Of a stretch of 64,000 bases of DNA, positions 2,797-58,803 are shown piece by piece; the first letter of the stretch is position 1, and every line of letters starts with the position of its first letter. Source of the stretch: Candidatus Falkowbacteria bacterium (lineage in GTDB: Bacteria > Patescibacteriota > Patescibacteriia > UBA11705); contig DOZJ01000006.1 of NCBI GenBank assembly GCA_003518055.1, positions 136,912 through 200,911 of the forward strand, in the 5' to 3' direction. The notes below the pieces were generated by a model. The model did no database searches. It was not told the DNA's origin and worked only from the letters and a program-made list of their open reading frames with translations. Made by a program: the position numbers and the translations under genes.

Positions 2797-3486
2797 CTAG
2801 CCGCGGCGCTGGACGGTCGGCTCTCGGTGGGAGTCCGCGAGGAGCGTCCGGAGGTTGACCGTGGGCGGGTTGAGCTCGCGCTGCTTCTGGTACTCCTCCT
2901 CCTCGGCGTCCTTGCGGGCGCGGAAGCAGGTGGGGCAGCAGATCGGCTCGCACTTGGCCTTCTCGCGGAGCTCGGTCGGGGTGAGGGTGTTCTGGAAGCT
3001 GCCCGGGCAGTCGTCGGCCTCGTGCACCTCGCACACGTGGGTGTGGAGAGCCTTGAACTTCAGGTTCTTGCGGCCGCCGAGCGCGATGTTGCCGCTGGCG
3101 TTGTCCTCGACGACCACCATCTTGGTGGTGGGGACGACGTTCGGCGTCTCGATCAGGTTGACGTAGCGGACGTCGCCGTGCGCCGTGGACTTCTCGTAGA
3201 CACGGACCGTGCAGACCGCGGTGCGGCCGGCGAGCAGCTTGCCGAAGAGGAAGTAGTTGATCACCAGCGTCTTGCCGGTCTTTTCCAGCAGATGGCGGGT
3301 CAGGCCGACCCACTGGAGATGCGGCGGGATCGGGGTGCCGTCGGGCAGGGTGGCGTCGGTGACGACGCGCACCGGCTGCTGATTGGGCATCAGCTCGGGG
3401 ACGCTGATCTGAACGGCGTGCTTCTCGTAGATGAGGTCGTGAGGGATGTTCTCGGGGTAGGTGTAGGGGCTCTGGAGCTCGCTCAT
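2797..3486 (-). CDS. Hypothetical Cys-rich protein in a high-GC (~65%) island
   Basis: Of three overlapping ORFs in the GC-rich block, this frame has protein-like composition, RBS GGAGGA before the ATG (MSELQSPYT...), its own terminator and a consensus promoter. C-terminal CxxxxC/CCPTC cysteine cluster. The other two frames are Ala/Arg/Gly/Leu-rich antisense artefacts. Confidence 0.55.
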   Translation of the reverse strand: MSELQSPYTYPENIPHDLIYEKHAVQISVPELMPNQQPVRVVTDATLPDGTPIPPHLQWVGLTRHLLEKTGKTLVINYFLFGKLLAGRTAVCTVRVYEKSTAHGDVRYVNLIETPNVVPTTKMVVVEDNASGNIALGGRKNLKFKALHTHVCEVHEADDCPGSFQNTLTPTELREKAKCEPICCPTCFRARKDAEEEEYQKQRELNPPTVNLRTLLADSHREPTVQRRG

Positions 3487-3564
3487 CGGATCCTCCGTAA
3501 AATGGCCCGTTTGGGCGTCATGTGGCGGCAATGCGCCGCGGGGATGGAATGTACAGTATTAAGC

Positions 3565-4002: not shown

Positions 4003-4031
4003 ATTATATCAATAATATTTTCTTTTGTCAA
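4003..4031 (-). promoter_or_regulatory. Consensus sigma70 promoter TTGACA-17-TATAAT for membrane protein A
   Basis: Minus-strand reading TTGACAaaagaaaatattattgaTATAAT. Confidence 0.55.
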
Positions 4032-4274: not shown

Positions 4275-5243
4275 ATGAAAACTTTTTGGGACAAACTACC
4301 GCGGCCGTTTTTGGCCTTGGCGCCGATGGCGGGAATTTCAGATTCGGCTTTTAGACAGATGTGCTTGAAATACGGCGCTGATGTTGTTTATACTGAAATG
4401 ACGGCATTTGATGCGCTGCATTATGGCAGCGCAAAGACGCTTGAAATGTTGAAATTCAATAAACGCAAAGAGCGACCGATTGTTATTCAGCTTTTTGGTA
4501 AACGGCCGGAGACTGTTAAAAAAGCCGTGGAGATGGTTGAAACGGCCGGATTTGACGGGATTGATATTAATTTTGGCTGTCCGGCCAGAAAAGTGGTAGC
4601 GCATGGCGGCGGCATTACACTCCTGCGAGATTTGAATTTGGCGCGCGAGATGGTGCAAGCGGTCACAGAAGCGGCGACGGTTCCGGTGTCAGTTAAAACC
4701 AGAACGTCTATCCTTCGAGTGACTCAGGTTGACAAAAGGGTAACTGTGTTTGATTTTATTGATAAAATAAAAGATTTGCCGGTAAAAGCGCTCATGATTC
4801 ATGGGCGCAGTTATGAGGGTGGATTTTCTGCTCCGATTGATTTTGACGTGATTAAACAAGTAAAGGAAACATTTAACGGCGTGGTCATCGGCAATGGCGG
4901 CATCAATACGCCGGAGCAAGCGATGGAGATGTTGAATAAAACCGGTGTTGACGGTTTGGGTTTGGCGCGAGGTCTTTATGGTCGACCGTATTTGTTTCAG
5001 CAAGCCAAGGAATATTTAAATAAAGGAAAATACAAAGAAGTAACATTAAAACAAATAAAAAAAATTGCGGTTGAGCACACGGAGTTATTGGCGGAATTGA
5101 AGGGAGAGTCAGGGATGTTTGAAATTCGGAAACATTTGTTGTGGTATTTCCGAGGGTTTCCAAATGCAGCGGAATGGCGGCAAAAGTTGGTCCGGGTGGA
5201 AAGTGTGGATGAGGTGGAGGGAATATTAAAAACGATGGTGTAA
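4275..5243 (+). CDS. dus: tRNA-dihydrouridine synthase (Dus family)
   Basis: LAPMAGISD...QLFG...GFDGIDINFGCP...IHGRS motifs of FMN-dependent Dus enzymes. 322 aa. Contains in-frame hairpin-repeat copy H2. Confidence 0.8.
   Translation: MKTFWDKLPRPFLALAPMAGISDSAFRQMCLKYGADVVYTEMTAFDALHYGSAKTLEMLKFNKRKERPIVIQLFGKRPETVKKAVEMVETAGFDGIDINFGCPARKVVAHGGGITLLRDLNLAREMVQAVTEAATVPVSVKTRTSILRVTQVDKRVTVFDFIDKIKDLPVKALMIHGRSYEGGFSAPIDFDVIKQVKETFNGVVIGNGGINTPEQAMEMLNKTGVDGLGLARGLYGRPYLFQQAKEYLNKGKYKEVTLKQIKKIAVEHTELLAELKGESGMFEIRKHLLWYFRGFPNAAEWRQKLVRVESVDEVEGILKTMV
4708..4737. repeat. Hairpin repeat H2 inside the dus coding region
   Basis: ATCCTTCGAGTGACTCAGGTTGACAAAAG. Matches H1 and H3. Sits in frame (encodes ...SILRVTQVDKR...). 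Confidence 0.45.
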
Positions 5244-5986: not shown

Positions 5987-6103
5987 ATGAGCGTGGGCTT
6001 AGACTGATTTACATTTTGGGATTTGACTGGTACAATAATCGTGAGTAATCTCGGGTAATTTTCAGGTAATAATCATTGTTTACAGAAAAAAATATAAATT
6101 AAT

Positions 6104-6823
6104 ATGAAAACAAAAACGACAACGAAAACCGGCAGTGATGAAGCGGAAAAATTAAAAAAAGACATTGTTGATGAAAATTCAGAATTGGATACAGGTTCAG
6201 AGACAATCGCTGATGAGGAGATTGAATCTGACGATGAAGATGAAGTGACAGCCAAAAAGCCCGACGGGGTTAAAAGATCAATAAAGGAAGATATCCTTTC
6301 GGTTTTGCCGCCGATTAAAGAGGTGGGAGCACCGGCCGGAGTAGTTGAAGTCAAGGAAAAAACAACCGAAGCATTGGAACAAGAAAAATTGGCATTGGAA
6401 AAAGAGCGGGAGGCGGTAAAAAAAGAAATTGAAGCTGACAAGGAAGATCTGGGTACGGTAGCGTCAGCGGCGGTCGCGGCGGCCACTCAGGACAAAAAAA
6501 ATCCAGTAATGGTGGAAGTGGAGGGAGTGCTGGAAGATGGTCTGGATCCTTATTTTTTGAAAATGACCCCGGCGGAAAAAGCTGAGTTCAAAAAAGTCGG
6601 CGAGGAAACGGCCGGCAAGGTAATGACGCTGTTGAAGGAAACAAAAGTAAAAGTGGTGAAAATTTTGGAATTGATTGCCAACTGGCTCAAAATGATTCCC
6701 GGAGTAAATAAATATTTTTTGGAGCAGGAGAGCAAGATTAAAACTGATACATTATTAAAAATGAAAGAGGAGGGGATGTTTGACCAGCCAGAGGCTCAAA
6801 CGGATGAAAACAAAATCAGCTAA
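6104..6823 (+). CDS. Highly acidic coiled-coil protein, first gene of the mreB operon
   Basis: 239 aa, Asp/Glu/Lys-rich, low complexity. Stop lies 2 nt before the mreB start. Confidence 0.45.
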   Translation: MKTKTTTKTGSDEAEKLKKDIVDENSELDTGSETIADEEIESDDEDEVTAKKPDGVKRSIKEDILSVLPPIKEVGAPAGVVEVKEKTTEALEQEKLALEKEREAVKKEIEADKEDLGTVASAAVAAATQDKKNPVMVEVEGVLEDGLDPYFLKMTPAEKAEFKKVGEETAGKVMTLLKETKVKVVKILELIANWLKMIPGVNKYFLEQESKIKTDTLLKMKEEGMFDQPEAQTDENKIS

Positions 6824-6825
6824 TT

Positions 6826-7833
6826 ATGTTTATCAAGAAAATTGGTATTGACCTTGGTACGACTTACACCCTCGTGCATTTACCGAAAAAGGGAATCGTG
6901 ATCAATGAACCGTCAGTAGTGGCGGTTTCGATTACGGACAAAAAAATTCTGGCGGTTGGTGATGAAGCGAAAGAGATGATCGGGCGCACACCCGAATCGA
7001 TTATCGCCTCGCGGCCGCTCAAAGACGGCGTGATTGCCGATTATAAAGCAACGGAGGCGATGCTTCGTTATTTTATTAATAAAGCACTTGGCGGAATTAA
7101 ACTGTTTCGACCGGAGGTGATGGTGGCGGTGCCGGCCGGAATCACTTCAACTGAACGTAGAGCGGTGATTGACGCGACAATCGCGGCCGGCGCGAGGGCG
7201 GCGTATATTATCAAAGAGCCGATCGCAGCGGCCATCGGCGCCAATATTCCGATTGGGACGGCCAGCGGTCATATGATTATCGATATCGGCGGTGGCACTA
7301 GCGAAATCGCAGTTATTTCACTTGGCGGTATTGTGGCGGCCAAGTCGGTTCGTATCGGCGGCAATCGGTTTGATAATGCCATTTCCGAGTTTATTAGACG
7401 AAAATACGGGTTGGCGGTAGGCGAGCGAACCGCGGAAAATATTAAAATTGAAATTGGCAGCGCGCTTTACGCCGAGGATCCGGATATTATGGATATCCGC
7501 GGCCGAGATATGATCAGCGGTTTGCCGAAAACGGTTAGCATTACGTCAAATGATGTGACTGAAGCGCTGCAGAAAGATTTGGAAGGAGTAATTCAGGCAG
7601 TCAAAGAGGTGTTGAATCAGACGCCGCCGGAGCTGTCAGCCGATGTGATTGATAAGGGAATTATCATGTCCGGCGGCGGCAGCCTGCTGCGCAATATTGA
7701 TCAATTGATTTCCCGCGCCATCGGCGTGCCGGTTTACGTGGCGGATGATTCTCTACTCTGCGTGGCCAAAGGTACGGGGATTGCGCTTGATAATTTGGAG
7801 ACTTATAAGCGGTCGATTTTGGCGACGCGATAG
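6826..7833 (+). CDS. mreB: Rod-shape-determining actin homolog MreB
   Basis: Collinear with bacterial MreB throughout (IGIDLGTTYT..., NEPSVVA, DIGGGTSEIAVIS, GGGSLL motifs). 335 aa. Confidence 0.9.
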   Translation: MFIKKIGIDLGTTYTLVHLPKKGIVINEPSVVAVSITDKKILAVGDEAKEMIGRTPESIIASRPLKDGVIADYKATEAMLRYFINKALGGIKLFRPEVMVAVPAGITSTERRAVIDATIAAGARAAYIIKEPIAAAIGANIPIGTASGHMIIDIGGGTSEIAVISLGGIVAAKSVRIGGNRFDNAISEFIRRKYGLAVGERTAENIKIEIGSALYAEDPDIMDIRGRDMISGLPKTVSITSNDVTEALQKDLEGVIQAVKEVLNQTPPELSADVIDKGIIMSGGGSLLRNIDQLISRAIGVPVYVADDSLLCVAKGTGIALDNLETYKRSILATR

Positions 7834-7837
7834 TTTT

Positions 7838-8374
7838 ATGACATATACGGATGCTTCATTACTCACGAATAGTATAATGTCTTCCTATGTAGAGTTGGTT
7901 GTTGGGATATTTGCAATTCGTCAGAATGGAATAGGAAATTTGTTTTGTTCTATTGGTGAGTTAAGTGTTGAATCCTCATTTAAACACCAACACTTTATAA
8001 TAGGATTACAGGATTTTATTTCAAAAATTACAACGGATGAATATAAAATGTTACACATGCAGACTGCTTTTAGACAGTTGAATCGAATGTTTATTTTATC
8101 GATGTGGGAAATATTGGTGGGGCATAATCGATATAATGATATTTGTAATGAGGAGGAAATCCAGTTTTTTCGACATATAAGAAATGGGTGTGCTCATGAT
8201 AATAAGTTAAATTTTAAGCAACTAGAAAAAACAGCTAAATGGAGAACTGTTGAGTTGAAGAGTTCTGATATTGCTAGGTCGATTTTTCCCGATGTTCTAA
8301 AAGATGGGGACCCAATTTTGTTATTAATAGATATAAATAATAAATATTTTACCCCGATTAATTTTTATAAGTAA
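7838..8374 (+). CDS. HEPN-superfamily protein (Abi_2 / AbiD-AbiF-like R-N-x3-A-H motif), predicted RNase
   Basis: FFRHIRNGCAHDNKL matches the R-x4-6-H HEPN signature in its Abi_2 RN..AH form. Start is 4 nt after the mreB stop. Gene is visibly more AT-rich than its neighbours. Confidence 0.45.
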   Translation: MTYTDASLLTNSIMSSYVELVVGIFAIRQNGIGNLFCSIGELSVESSFKHQHFIIGLQDFISKITTDEYKMLHMQTAFRQLNRMFILSMWEILVGHNRYNDICNEEEIQFFRHIRNGCAHDNKLNFKQLEKTAKWRTVELKSSDIARSIFPDVLKDGDPILLLIDINNKYFTPINFYK

Positions 8375-8385
8375 CTTTTAAATTA

Positions 8386-8862
8386 ATGAATTACGCTTTT
8401 ATTGATAGTCAAAATTTAAACTTGGGAGTTCAGGAGTTGGGTTGGAGGTTGGATTGGAAAAAGTTTAGGATATATTTAAAACATAAGTATAAGGTTGAAA
8501 GAGCTTATTTGTTTATTGGTTTTGTTGAAGATAATGGCAATATGTATCGGTTGTTGCAGTCGTACGGTTTTATTTTAGTCTTTAAGCCGACTTTGAAAGA
8601 TGGGAAAGGAAATATAAAGGGGAATGTTGATGCTGATTTAGTTTTGCGAGCAATGGTTGACAAGGAAGAATATGACCAAGCGATAATTGTTACAAGCGAT
8701 GGCGATTTTTATTGTTTGGTAGAGTATTTATACGGAAATAATAAGTTGCGTTGTGTTATTAGTCCGTGCAAGAAATATTGTTCAACATTACTTCAAAGAG
8801 CGGCAAAAGAGAAGATACATTATATGGATAATTTGTGTAAGAAATTGCAGTATTTAAAATGA
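8386..8862 (+). CDS. NYN-domain (LabA/DUF88-like, PIN-related) predicted ribonuclease
   Basis: YAFIDSQNL...VDADLVL...IIVTSDGDF reproduces the three acidic motifs of NYN/LabA nucleases. 158 aa, AT-rich. Confidence 0.6.
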   Translation: MNYAFIDSQNLNLGVQELGWRLDWKKFRIYLKHKYKVERAYLFIGFVEDNGNMYRLLQSYGFILVFKPTLKDGKGNIKGNVDADLVLRAMVDKEEYDQAIIVTSDGDFYCLVEYLYGNNKLRCVISPCKKYCSTLLQRAAKEKIHYMDNLCKKLQYLK

Positions 8863-8905
8863 AAAAGCACCGCTATTAGACTAACCTGAATAGAAGTGCT
8901 TTTTC
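8863..8905 (+). terminator. Terminator after the HEPN-NYN pair
   Basis: AAAGCAC...GTGCTTTTT stem-loop followed by a T-run. Confidence 0.4.
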
Positions 8906-9030
8906 CTATTGATTCCATTATAATTATAGCAAAATTAAGTAATTTGTCAATGTATCCACAGGGTTATAGTAGTTTTGGCTAAATTAATGGAGACCCTGAA
9001 ATAAATTCAGGGTGACGGATTGGAAAATAT

Positions 9031-10245
9031 ATGAAAATCGGCATTGATGCCTCGCGGGCGAATAAGCCCATAAAGACCGGCGTGGAGTGGTATTCATACC
9101 ATATAATTCAAGAACTCAAAAAAATTGACAGCGACAATCAATATTTTTTGTATACCAACACGCCGCTTGATATGGGGTTGGAGAAGTGTCCGGGGAATTT
9201 CAAAGAGGTGTGGCTCAAATGGCCGCTTCGCTATATGTGGACTTTGATTCGGCTCAGCTGTGAAATAAAATTCGGGAAAACCAAACCGGATTTGTTGTTT
9301 GTGCCGGCTCATACGCTGCCGCTGGTTAATCCATCCAAATCGGTGGTAACCATTCATGACATCGGATATGAACGCTTTCCGGATTTGTACAAATGGCCGC
9401 AAAGATTTTATCACAAATGGAGCTCAAGATTTGTAAAAAAACACGCGACAAAAATTTTGACCGTGTCGGAATTTTCCAAAAAAGAAATAATGGAAGTGTA
9501 TGGCGTGCCGGAGGAAAAAATCGCGGTGGTTTATAATGGGTATGATAAAGATGTATATGGGTTAAGGGGGCGTGAGGGGGCTGAAGAGGGTGGGGTTACG
9601 AAATTACCCACCTACGCTGATGCTCCGGCGGGCAGGCAAAACATTACCCGCCTACGCATGGGCTACGGCGGGCAGGCAAAAAGTTACGAAAACAAGACTG
9701 CTGTAAATGGGCAGTATATGATGTTCGTCGGCCGGTTGGAGGCGAAGAAAAATATTGAGCGTCTGCTTGACGCGTTTGTGACTTTCAAGGCCAAAAATCC
9801 TGAGGATAAACACAAACTGGTGTTGGTTGGCAAGCCAAGGCCGGAGTTTCAGCAAAAGATGATGCGGCTCGCCCTTGAAAATAAAGATAATGATATTATT
9901 CATTTTGAATATTTGAAGGCGGCCGAGGTGGCGTCGTTGTTGCATCGGGCGGATTTGTTTGTGTTTCCGTCGTTGTATGAAGGTTTTGGCATTCCGGTGC
10001 TGGAAGCCATGGCCTGCGGCTGTCCGGTGATTTGCGCCAATACGACATCTTTGCCTGAAGTCGCGGGTGAAGCCGCGATTATGTTTGATCCCGAACGGGT
10101 GGATTTGATCGTAAAGGCGATGGAAACCGTGCTTTTTAATCCCACCGTTGCGGTGGCGTTGAAGGAAAAAGGTTTGGAGCGCGTCAAGGCGTTTTCATGG
10201 AATAAAGCAGCGAGGGAGATAAAGGAGATTATGGAAAAAATATGA
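9031..10245 (+). CDS. Glycosyltransferase family 4, carrying an in-frame repeat insertion
   Basis: C-terminal EGFGIPVLEAMACGCPVI...E GT-B retaining-GT motif. A low-complexity insert (GLRGREGAEEGGVTKLPTYADAPAGRQ...GYGGQAK) is encoded by repeat R2. Confidence 0.8.
   Translation: MKIGIDASRANKPIKTGVEWYSYHIIQELKKIDSDNQYFLYTNTPLDMGLEKCPGNFKEVWLKWPLRYMWTLIRLSCEIKFGKTKPDLLFVPAHTLPLVNPSKSVVTIHDIGYERFPDLYKWPQRFYHKWSSRFVKKHATKILTVSEFSKKEIMEVYGVPEEKIAVVYNGYDKDVYGLRGREGAEEGGVTKLPTYADAPAGRQNITRLRMGYGGQAKSYENKTAVNGQYMMFVGRLEAKKNIERLLDAFVTFKAKNPEDKHKLVLVGKPRPEFQQKMMRLALENKDNDIIHFEYLKAAEVASLLHRADLFVFPSLYEGFGIPVLEAMACGCPVICANTTSLPEVAGEAAIMFDPERVDLIVKAMETVLFNPTVAVALKEKGLERVKAFSWNKAAREIKEIMEKI
9570..9690. repeat. 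GC-rich dispersed repeat R2 (tandem half-units) in frame within the GT4 gene
   Basis: TTACCCACCTACGC...CCGGCGGGCAGGCAAAA occurs twice in tandem, preceded by a G-rich GGGGGCGTGAGGGGGCTGAAGAGGGTGGGG leader. Confidence 0.6.
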
Positions 10246-50966: not shown

Positions 50967-50994
50967 TTGACATTATTTTATTTTACTGTATAAT
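50967..50994 (+). promoter_or_regulatory. Promoter TTGACA-16-TATAAT for infA
   Basis: TTGACAttattttattttactgTATAAT. Confidence 0.5.
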
Positions 50995-58615: not shown

Positions 58616-58803
58616 TTGACGAAATATTTATCTTTTGCTAAAATATAAATACAAATTAATTCCGCAGACTGCAAGTGTCGATAGACTTAAATATCTTGCA
58701 TAGGAACGAATAAGAGCTTACGGTCTTTGAGCCGTTAGTTTTTAGAAGATAAGTCTGCGGGGAACCGGAGATATTTTTTTACTAATTATTCATTTTTAAC
58801 AAT
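58616..58803 (+). promoter_or_regulatory. rplJ promoter (TTGACG-17-TAAAAT) and structured 5' leader (L10-leader-like autoregulatory element)
   Basis: About 150-nt untranslated leader enclosed by a long-range pairing CCGCAGAC (58662-58669) / GTCTGCGG (58753-58760), consistent with an L10(L12)4-binding leader. Confidence 0.45.

Follow-up and report, generated by a model that had tools for sequence, protein, structure and literature searches.

What are two small AT-rich genes, both annotated as hypothetical (proteins HCC23653.1 and HCC23654.1), doing directly behind the cytoskeletal gene mreB of a Candidatus Falkowbacteria bacterium, and do they have anything to do with MreB? The locus lies on contig DOZJ01000006.1 of this member of the Patescibacteria, or candidate phyla radiation (CPR), of which a stretch of 64 kb, referred to here as the window, was analysed. 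A previous reading of the DNA letters, called here the sequence-only reading, had placed mreB at 6826–7833, followed after 4 nt by an open reading frame (ORF) of 178 aa with a HEPN-type motif and, after a further 11 nt, by an ORF of 158 aa with the acidic motifs of NYN domains, and this layout was confirmed in every detail. It had also taken the two genes for an inserted cassette replacing mreC and mreD, possibly a toxin–antitoxin (TA) or abortive infection (Abi) pair, or a system that senses perturbation of MreB. Our analysis leads to a different picture, to which we give a probability of about 60%: the segment 7838–9030 would be a horizontally acquired accessory islet holding two separate, independently mobile predicted RNase genes, of which the NYN gene comes with an antisense module, and it would have no functional connection to MreB.

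The insertion becomes evident when the locus is set beside its relatives. The comparison included 80 metagenomic loci whose MreB is 72–89% identical to that of the window (Pfam MreB_Mbl, 6.9e-135; plus strand), and 68 of them were informative, having enough downstream sequence. In the window, the insertion is followed by a gene for a GT4 glycosyltransferase (9031–10245, plus strand; Pfam Glycos_transf_1, 9.7e-33). Orthologues of this gene start no more than 150 nt after the mreB stop codon in 43 of the 68 informative loci and 151–2902 nt after it in 14 more, and the remaining 11 have other genes there. The segment 7838–9030 is absent from all 68, and no HEPN-like or NYN gene was found in the approximately 525 kb that make up the 80 related mreB loci. 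The four closest relatives (L026–L029, with 84–89% MreB identity) show the gene order of the window without the two ORFs, namely dus, a 239-aa gene, mreB, GT4, holB and a BNR-repeat protein in L026–L028, and the 239-aa gene, mreB and GT4 in L029, which is a short contig. Even the junction is identical, with the same TAG-TTTT-ATG leading from the mreB stop codon to the GT4 start codon in L026 and to the start codon of the 178-aa ORF in the window. Since the closest relatives have mreB followed by GT4 without the cassette and with the same junction, nothing was displaced at mreB; 7838–9030 (plus strand) is a lineage-specific insertion that added 1193 bp, placed precisely between the stop codon of mreB and the start codon of GT4.

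The composition of the inserted DNA sets it apart from its surroundings. GC content is 0.31 in the HEPN-like gene, 0.33 in the NYN gene and 0.32 in the 168-nt spacer at the 3′ end, against 0.51 in mreB and 0.47 in GT4, so that the earlier remark on the AT-richness of both genes stands, and horizontal acquisition of the insertion is supported. At its borders, only short direct or inverted repeats or target-site duplications at chance level were seen. Close relatives of either gene were found neither in INPHARED nor in PLSDB, and IMG/VR yielded only two distant homologues of the NYN protein. As for mreC and mreD, the proposal that the two genes had taken their place was not borne out: the position immediately downstream of mreB is ancestrally that of GT4 in the related CPR loci compared. 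MreC has been reported in most classes of Patescibacteria (PMC11809585); in this clade it is not a neighbour of mreB and is evidently encoded elsewhere, the rest of the window not having been searched for mreC or mreD.

A HEPN–NYN system coupled to MreB would have been striking, either sensing perturbation of the cytoskeleton or substituting for MreC and MreD, and the spacing of only 4 nt behind mreB together with a probable co-transcription speaks for such a coupling. The comparative data, however, remove the link to MreB. The sensing idea loses its basis because neither gene is linked to mreB in the 80 mreB loci or elsewhere: none of the approximately 22 loci read for the two families (7 for NYN and about 15 for the HEPN-like family) adjoins mreB. 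In addition, the ancestral neighbour of mreB is GT4, and other lineages carry insertions of unrelated genes at the mreB–GT4 junction. We therefore regard a functional coupling to MreB as very improbable.

These other insertions deserve a description of their own. In L050 (1223–4058), the mreB–GT4 junction holds a low-GC insert encoding a 783-aa AAA_13 ATPase (5.4e-120), an ATPase type known from RloC/PrrC-like defence proteins, together with a HopJ-like protein. Inserts at the same junction were also seen in L100 (DUF2207) and L058 (glycosyl-hydrolase-like). Because other accessory genes have been inserted there in a few lineages, the 3′ junction of mreB seems to be a permissive and recurrent landing site, and for the two genes studied here it would be simply that. 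The locus thereby illustrates how precisely accessory genes can be slotted between the stop and start codons of conserved CPR operons.

Such a position has consequences for transcription. A promoter-like site was found at 6008–6036, ahead of the 239-aa gene that precedes mreB, and between 6036 and 8861 the plus strand carries no terminator and no good promoter; both inserted ORFs would most likely be transcribed by read-through from the promoter of the mreB operon. As a consequence of the insertion, a terminator now lies between the mreB promoter and GT4–holB, and the only plus-strand promoter candidate read from the sequence there is a weak one (TTGTCA-15 nt-TATAGT, at about 8945–8971).

The first inserted gene (7838–8374, plus strand) encodes the 178-aa protein, which is probably a stand-alone HEPN-superfamily RNase with an intact active-site signature, belonging to no named family. 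Its motif FFRHIRNGCAHDN contains R115-N-G-C-A-H120 (8180–8197, plus strand; R115 at 8180–8182 and H120 at 8195–8197), the predicted active site of the Rx4H form, in which the polar residue (N, D or H) required directly after the arginine of the Rx4-6H signature is N116. The start codon at 7838 is supported by residues 1–13, which align with the N-terminus of the family, the NCBI annotation being shorter (165 aa). A likeness of the beginning of this ORF to the beginning of GT4 was rejected, since the N-terminus aligns with the HEPN-like family.

The size of this family depends on the search: a word-indexed one found 24 close clusters, an exhaustive HMMER one 304 representatives (E ≤ 1e-3), and among 185,579 species genomes there were eight loci. 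A third round with a wide alignment, again limited by the word index, added little. All members are stand-alone proteins of roughly 170–220 aa. RNGCAH is invariant in the 24 close homologues, and in 110 diverse representatives R115, N116 and H120 are at least 90% conserved, the nearly invariant positions being F110, H113, R115, N116, H120, W135, D158, L162 and D165 and the consensus of the motif region F-x-R-H-x-R-N-A-x-A-H. The sole library match of the window protein itself was a weak one to a PHROGs abortive-infection family (residues 108–136, E 0.033), and a profile search of the family against PDB sequences returned nothing. When the 110 relatives were scanned individually they fell below gathering scores, their sub-threshold Pfam matches being to pEK499_p136 (17 relatives, best 7.9e-5), Abi_2 (7, best 3.6e-4), LA2681, MAE_28990 and Swt1 (2 each) and those in PADLOC to AbiD (7) and Cas13b (3), with single matches to CARF_HEPN and to a model of a reverse transcriptase with HEPN. 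In both Pfam and PADLOC, the families matched by more than one member were exclusively HEPN families.

The predicted position of the motif points in the same direction. An AlphaFold2 model built on the 110-sequence alignment (mean predicted local distance difference test 94.5, predicted template modelling score 0.88) replaced a first, mediocre one from 24 sequences (76 on the former scale). In the predicted model, R115–C118 form the C-terminal end of a helix spanning 106–118, and H120 is the first residue of the loop. This agrees with the location of the Rx4-6H motif in HEPN proteins, where it closes core helix 3 and opens the loop that follows (PMC3710099). The sequence-only reading had seen here a HEPN protein in its Abi_2 form; the superfamily assignment is probable, given the invariant motif, its position at the helix end and the HEPN-only sub-threshold matches, but the protein is not a member of Abi_2 (PF07751, or AbiD in PADLOC), to which it had no match itself and seven of its 110 relatives only sub-threshold ones. 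By sequence it appears nearest to pEK499_p136 and Abi2/AbiD, and it is predicted to work like an Abi2-type HEPN. By analogy with other HEPN proteins, RNGCAH would serve, in a dimer, as an endoRNase site that needs no metal, and the protein may act as a solitary Abi-like or toxin-like effector.

The genomic surroundings of the HEPN-like family were read in about 15 distinct contexts. The gene usually lies 5–20 GC points under its flanks and is spread patchily over Patescibacteria, Thermodesulfobacteriota, Longimicrobiales, Dehalococcoidales and a Rhodococcus plasmid. It is found near IS110 and BrnT (L007), beside an IS200 transposase (L008), between IS3 and IS5 (L113), beside a NERD protein (L015) and within an rpsP-KH...trmD stretch (L009), where its companions are an NTP_transf_2 (MNT-type) gene and a 133-aa ORF without assignment. 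Such an NTP_transf_2 gene is present only near this homologue (L009/L010) and has its own downstream partner ORF. Neither a constant partner nor a conserved non-coding flank was detected in the approximately 15 contexts, and the pattern is that of a mobile conflict-system gene. As the sequence-only reading had noted, both inserted genes encode proteins of nuclease classes typical of conflict systems.

Two further contexts stand out among them. In a Roizmanbacteria locus (L016, 98–3819), a distant HEPN-like gene lies 11 nt upstream of a gene for a 1067-aa fusion of N6-methylase, type I specificity and HEPN_AbiU2 domains, which is a clear defence context for the family. In a Longimicrobiales locus (L013, 3828–5531), the HEPN-like gene follows 46 nt after a gene for a 368-aa GGDEF/Cas10-palm-like protein, an arrangement that could represent a pairing of nucleotide signal and effector; this copy is GC-rich (0.56), like its host.

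The second inserted gene (8386–8862, plus strand) encodes a small LabA-like NYN (PIN-like) predicted nuclease of 158 aa, and on sequence criteria this assignment is solid. Pfam NYN (PF01936) matches residues 5–142 with 49.4 bits against a cut-off of 24.2 (E 8.8e-13), and the acidic, metal-binding residues D7, D82, D105 and D107 as well as N10 are invariant in 26 aligned homologues, so that the acidic motifs recognised earlier were correctly interpreted. The nearest solved structure is 2qip (VPA0982; match to the family profile 1.5e-14), the structural representative of the LabA-like cluster NYN.COG1432, of which no member has been characterised as a nuclease (PMC5499597). The protein would thus be a LabA-type metal-dependent nuclease of a very large CPR-wide family, in which 7992 of 8000 scored candidates were significant, so that the homologous clusters number at least 7992. 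Among the matches listed, identity to the window NYN is 62–76%, mostly 62–70%, and the source names are almost all Patescibacteria.

In seven independent contexts the NYN gene is solitary, and no two of its positions agree. In L019 it lies between genes for a histidine kinase and a Mg-chelatase-like protein, with recombinases alongside; in L021 it follows a pilM-type operon, and in L024 it comes 12 nt behind prfA. In L106 it is found downstream of the gene for RNase Y, from which three small ORFs separate it, and in L108 it stands between a NUDIX gene and pheT. The other two contexts are IMG/VR contigs (L111 and L112). None of the seven contains a HEPN-like gene or adjoins mreB. A NIF3 (DUF34) gene was noticed within two genes of NYN in L024 (4595–5572) and L108 (2134–2883), whose contexts are otherwise different, and this proximity may be a coincidence.

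What does accompany the NYN gene is the DNA behind it. The approximately 90 nt after its stop codon share 70–77% identity with the same region at NYN homologues in unrelated contexts (blastn, four of five other close loci), and a multiple alignment of six loci shows the same conserved block of about 90 nt, with no conservation of the 5′ flank. The block was located at 8855–8950 in the window (both strands) and at 4492–4600 in L019, 4492–4600 in L021, 4474–4590 in L024, 3981–4085 in L106, 3983–4095 in L108, 1958–2075 in L111 and 1961–2075 in L112. The NYN gene would accordingly travel as a unit with this 3′ module.

The centre of the module is a hairpin between an A-run and a T-run (8861–8905, readable on either strand), which has the form of a bidirectional intrinsic terminator, with a folding energy of −17.1 kcal/mol on the plus strand (z −3.5) and −19.2 kcal/mol on the minus strand (z −4.2). 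The terminator that the sequence-only reading had given to the two genes is thus present, but it belongs to a conserved, NYN-linked antisense module. The hairpin is kept 3′ of NYN in the seven other loci, with an outer stem of AAAAAGCAC/GTGCTTTTT in most of them, GGCTGGC/GCCAGCC in L111 and GGGGC/GCTCC in L112, an inner stem that covaries (CTTAGGG/CCCAAAG, CTTAAAG/CTTTAAG, CTATT/AATAG) and an apex conserved as GGGACGRAACCC. Compensatory changes occur in 7 of the 16 pairs; 88% of the cells are paired, against 79% in shuffles and 54–64% with a slid partner, and the covariation score exceeds that of all 500 shuffles. The two strands are not equivalent, since G·U pairs number 15 in the minus sense and 3 in the plus sense and the minus strand is the more stable in six of seven sequences. 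This asymmetry points to a functional RNA made from the minus strand.

A promoter for such an RNA is at hand. Directed into the NYN gene, from 8950 to 8923 on the minus strand, lies a sigma-70 promoter of the form TTGACA-16 nt-TATAAT, which matches the consensus at 12 of 12 positions and has an extended TGn −10 element. Perfect promoters of this kind (TTGACA-N16–18-TATAAT) occur four times in the 64 kb (2551–2580, 4003–4031 and 8923–8950 on the minus strand, 50967–50994 on the plus strand), against 0.03 expected; those at 2551–2580 and 4003–4031 were read from the sequence to lie roughly 40–70 nt upstream of start codons with a ribosome-binding site, and this CPR genome apparently uses textbook sigma-70 promoters. 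In all eight NYN loci, the −35 and −10 elements are present with a spacing of 16–17 nt, in the same register, 15–18 nt before the hairpin.

Conservation of the element is that of DNA rather than of a peptide. Its identity among the six closer loci is 0.59–0.74 (one pair 0.49), against 0.35–0.46 for the saturated third codon positions of the adjacent ORF. Moreover, 67 of 120 NYN homologues end in C-terminal tails (KKHRLRTEP, KKSTA, KKAPLKDGT and similar) that correspond to element DNA in three frames, and because the tails are one element read in three different frames, it is the DNA and not the peptide that is conserved. Judged from these translated tails, the module is conserved in many more lineages than the eight loci in which it was read. 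A covariance model of the element (R1) matched only NYN 3′ ends in 527 kb, all of them loci used to build it, and no Rfam family covers the element.

Promoter and terminator, conserved as they are in eight of eight loci, lead us to predict an antisense small RNA of about 60 nt that would run on the minus strand from about 8916 to about 8855, consisting of a leader of about 10 nt, the hairpin and a U-run. It would cover the stop codon and 3′ end of NYN and share the bidirectional terminator, as a common 3′ end, with the NYN mRNA. The 5′ part of the small RNA finds its best pairing site at NYN codons 3–9 in four of the eight loci, with an energy that is significant only in L111, and may be followed as a lead. 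By analogy with type I TA loci that have convergent transcripts, the antisense RNA would restrain the expression of NYN.

Several points weigh against this interpretation of an accessory islet with two independent genes and an antisense module. The 178-aa protein belongs to no Pfam, NCBIfam or PADLOC family, thus to no curated HEPN model, and the matches at the family level all remain below curated cut-offs and cover mainly about 45 residues around the motif. The module was read in eight loci only, complemented by the indirect data of protein tails, and its hairpin may be no more than a terminator. That NYN is so well conserved throughout CPR could reflect a housekeeping rather than a selfish role. 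The HEPN-like and NYN genes are linked in the population (7 and 9 contigs), have the same GC content and are separated by only 11 nt, so they may have arrived, or may act, together. Finally, in one other lineage (L003/L004/L011) a gene for an NYN-OST-HTH protein lies 56 nt upstream of a HEPN-like gene, which is more than naive chance would give.

The last two points lead to the view that the genes form a dedicated two-component HEPN–NYN system, either a TA pair or a two-RNase defence module, acquired and working as one operon. Their common strand and common terminator fit this view as well, NYN-OST-HTH would be a second, independent juxtaposition, and Swt1 provides a precedent for a HEPN domain fused to a PIN-like one (PMC3710099). 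The family sizes are nevertheless out of proportion, with at least 7992 clusters for NYN and 24 to 304 for the HEPN-like family, and a survey of neighbourhoods, suggested earlier for finding out whether the pair is conserved and always next to mreB, gave a negative answer on both counts: only 2 of the approximately 15 HEPN-like contexts hold any NYN gene, in addition to the complete absence of the HEPN-like gene from the NYN contexts. The second juxtaposition involves another NYN subfamily (not detected by phmmer with the window NYN at E ≤ 0.01) and the reversed gene order, and it could be explained by clustering of nucleases in variable islands. The NYN gene also has its own conserved RNA module, independent of the HEPN-like gene. 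Sequence comparison indicates that the pairing is not a conserved operon, and we consider a dedicated two-component system unlikely; from the idea of an inserted two-gene cassette there remains the horizontally acquired AT-rich insertion.

The NYN-OST-HTH gene in these loci has a peculiarity. In L003 (5177–5944) and L004 (2834–3601), which are independent assemblies, one in-frame stop codon separates the NYN part from the OST-HTH part, and one gene caller read straight through it. This may be a split gene, a pseudogene or a case of recoding.

The NYN protein might instead be a housekeeping CPR enzyme of RNA processing, with the hairpin serving either as a target for autoregulation in cis or simply as a strong terminator, the HEPN-like gene being an unrelated hitch-hiker and toxin-like biology playing no part. 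A stem-loop in its own 3′ untranslated region is cleaved by the NYN/PIN-like RNase Regnase-1, which may be cited for this explanation. The very large and highly conserved family is found co-directionally in housekeeping operons (after prfA, between NUDIX and pheT, downstream of the RNase Y gene), and bacterial NYN proteins have been predicted to act in tRNA or rRNA processing (PMC5499597). Yet the position of the gene differs in every lineage sampled, close relatives lack it at mreB, and its GC content is lower than that of its flanks. A cis-acting hairpin would, moreover, leave unexplained both the in-register promoter on the opposite strand and the G·U asymmetry favouring the minus strand. 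On balance, a purely housekeeping NYN appears quite doubtful to us, and we keep to the islet of two independently mobile genes.

Some other features of the window may be mentioned. The gene for the 239-aa acidic, lysine-rich protein (6104–6823, plus strand), outside the insert, opens the mreB transcription unit and ends 2 nt before mreB. The protein has no Pfam or NCBIfam family, and only its C-terminal part of about 88 aa is conserved; in the closest relatives (L026–L030) this part is always encoded immediately ahead of mreB. The protein could be a lineage-specific one associated with MreB. An ORF of 230 aa at 2800–3489 (minus strand) has about 65% GC inside a genome of 42% GC, without a Pfam family and without a tblastn match in phage or plasmid collections; it may be foreign, acquired from a high-GC donor, or else a chimera of the assembly. 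The ribosomal protein L10 leader at 58644–58788 (plus strand; RF00557, 56.4 bits) is the sole Rfam match at gathering level in the window, and ARAGORN found no tRNA genes in the 64 kb.

What is new at this locus are the unnamed HEPN family and the NYN-linked antisense module, whereas the HEPN fold, the NYN fold and accessory islets as such are already known; in the full-text literature searched on NYN, no description of such a module was found. The former comprises about 300 representative clusters, bears a clear active-site signature and is scattered in mobile and defence contexts of several phyla. The latter accompanies a gene that ranks among the most abundant small nuclease genes of CPR bacteria, and for it we suggest tentatively that NYN, convergent promoter and terminator hairpin constitute a new and widespread type I-like module, in which a nuclease would be controlled by an antisense RNA of about 60 nt from an undescribed family, in thousands of CPR lineages and possibly with a HEPN–NYN two-RNase conflict system. 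CPR bacteria have tiny genomes, to which few regulatory RNAs and few known TA or defence systems are ascribed. If the suggestion is true, a unit of nuclease and antisense RNA in thousands of lineages would offer an entry point into CPR RNA biology as well as a new type I-like module.

Comparison with known systems shows how far the resemblances go. Like the LabA-like cluster NYN.COG1432 (PF01936; 2qip; Matelska et al. 2017, PMC5499597), the NYN protein appears to be a single-domain PIN-like fold of about 160 aa with four conserved acidic residues; the CPR subfamily differs in being unusually uniform (mostly 62–70% identity among the matches listed), in having no OST-HTH domain and in being accompanied by the conserved convergent promoter and hairpin. 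The HEPN-like protein shares with the pEK499_p136-like and Abi2 (AbiD/AbiF) families (PF18736, PF07751; PMC3710099) a small helical build, an Rx4H motif of the R-N-x-x-A/x-H type with a polar residue after the arginine, and a sporadic presence in restriction–modification, defence and mobile contexts. It departs from them by the additional invariant H113, W135, D158 and D165, by a long non-helical insert after the motif (residues 121–147), and in that no member of its family attains a curated cut-off. The eukaryotic Swt1, which likewise joins a PIN-like to a HEPN fold, shows that both can cooperate; it is, however, a single polypeptide whose HEPN dyad is listed as inactive (PMC3710099), and here we have two bacterial genes of families that are mostly apart. 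In HEPN–MNT systems of type II/VII TA (7ae2, 5yep, 8xdj), the HEPN gene has an adjacent MNT antitoxin, whereas the neighbours in the window are mreB and, in place of an MNT partner, an NYN nuclease, and sequence similarity to these HEPN proteins is undetectable.

The closest parallel to the arrangement behind NYN is found in type I TA systems. As in these, the gene for a protein would converge with a short antisense RNA, made from a strong promoter, on a single terminator hairpin, the two RNAs would be complementary at their 3′ ends, and the whole is a mobile module present in varied sites. Convergent transcripts on a bidirectional terminator are known from par of pAD1, with Fst and RNA II, and from TxpA/RatA and BsrG/SR4 of Bacillus. 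The NYN locus, known here from sequence alone, differs from type I systems in that the gene has no promoter of its own and that the product is a soluble predicted nuclease of 158 aa and not a membrane peptide of about 30 aa. In this last respect SymE and RalR, which are nuclease toxins, are the nearer type I precedents.

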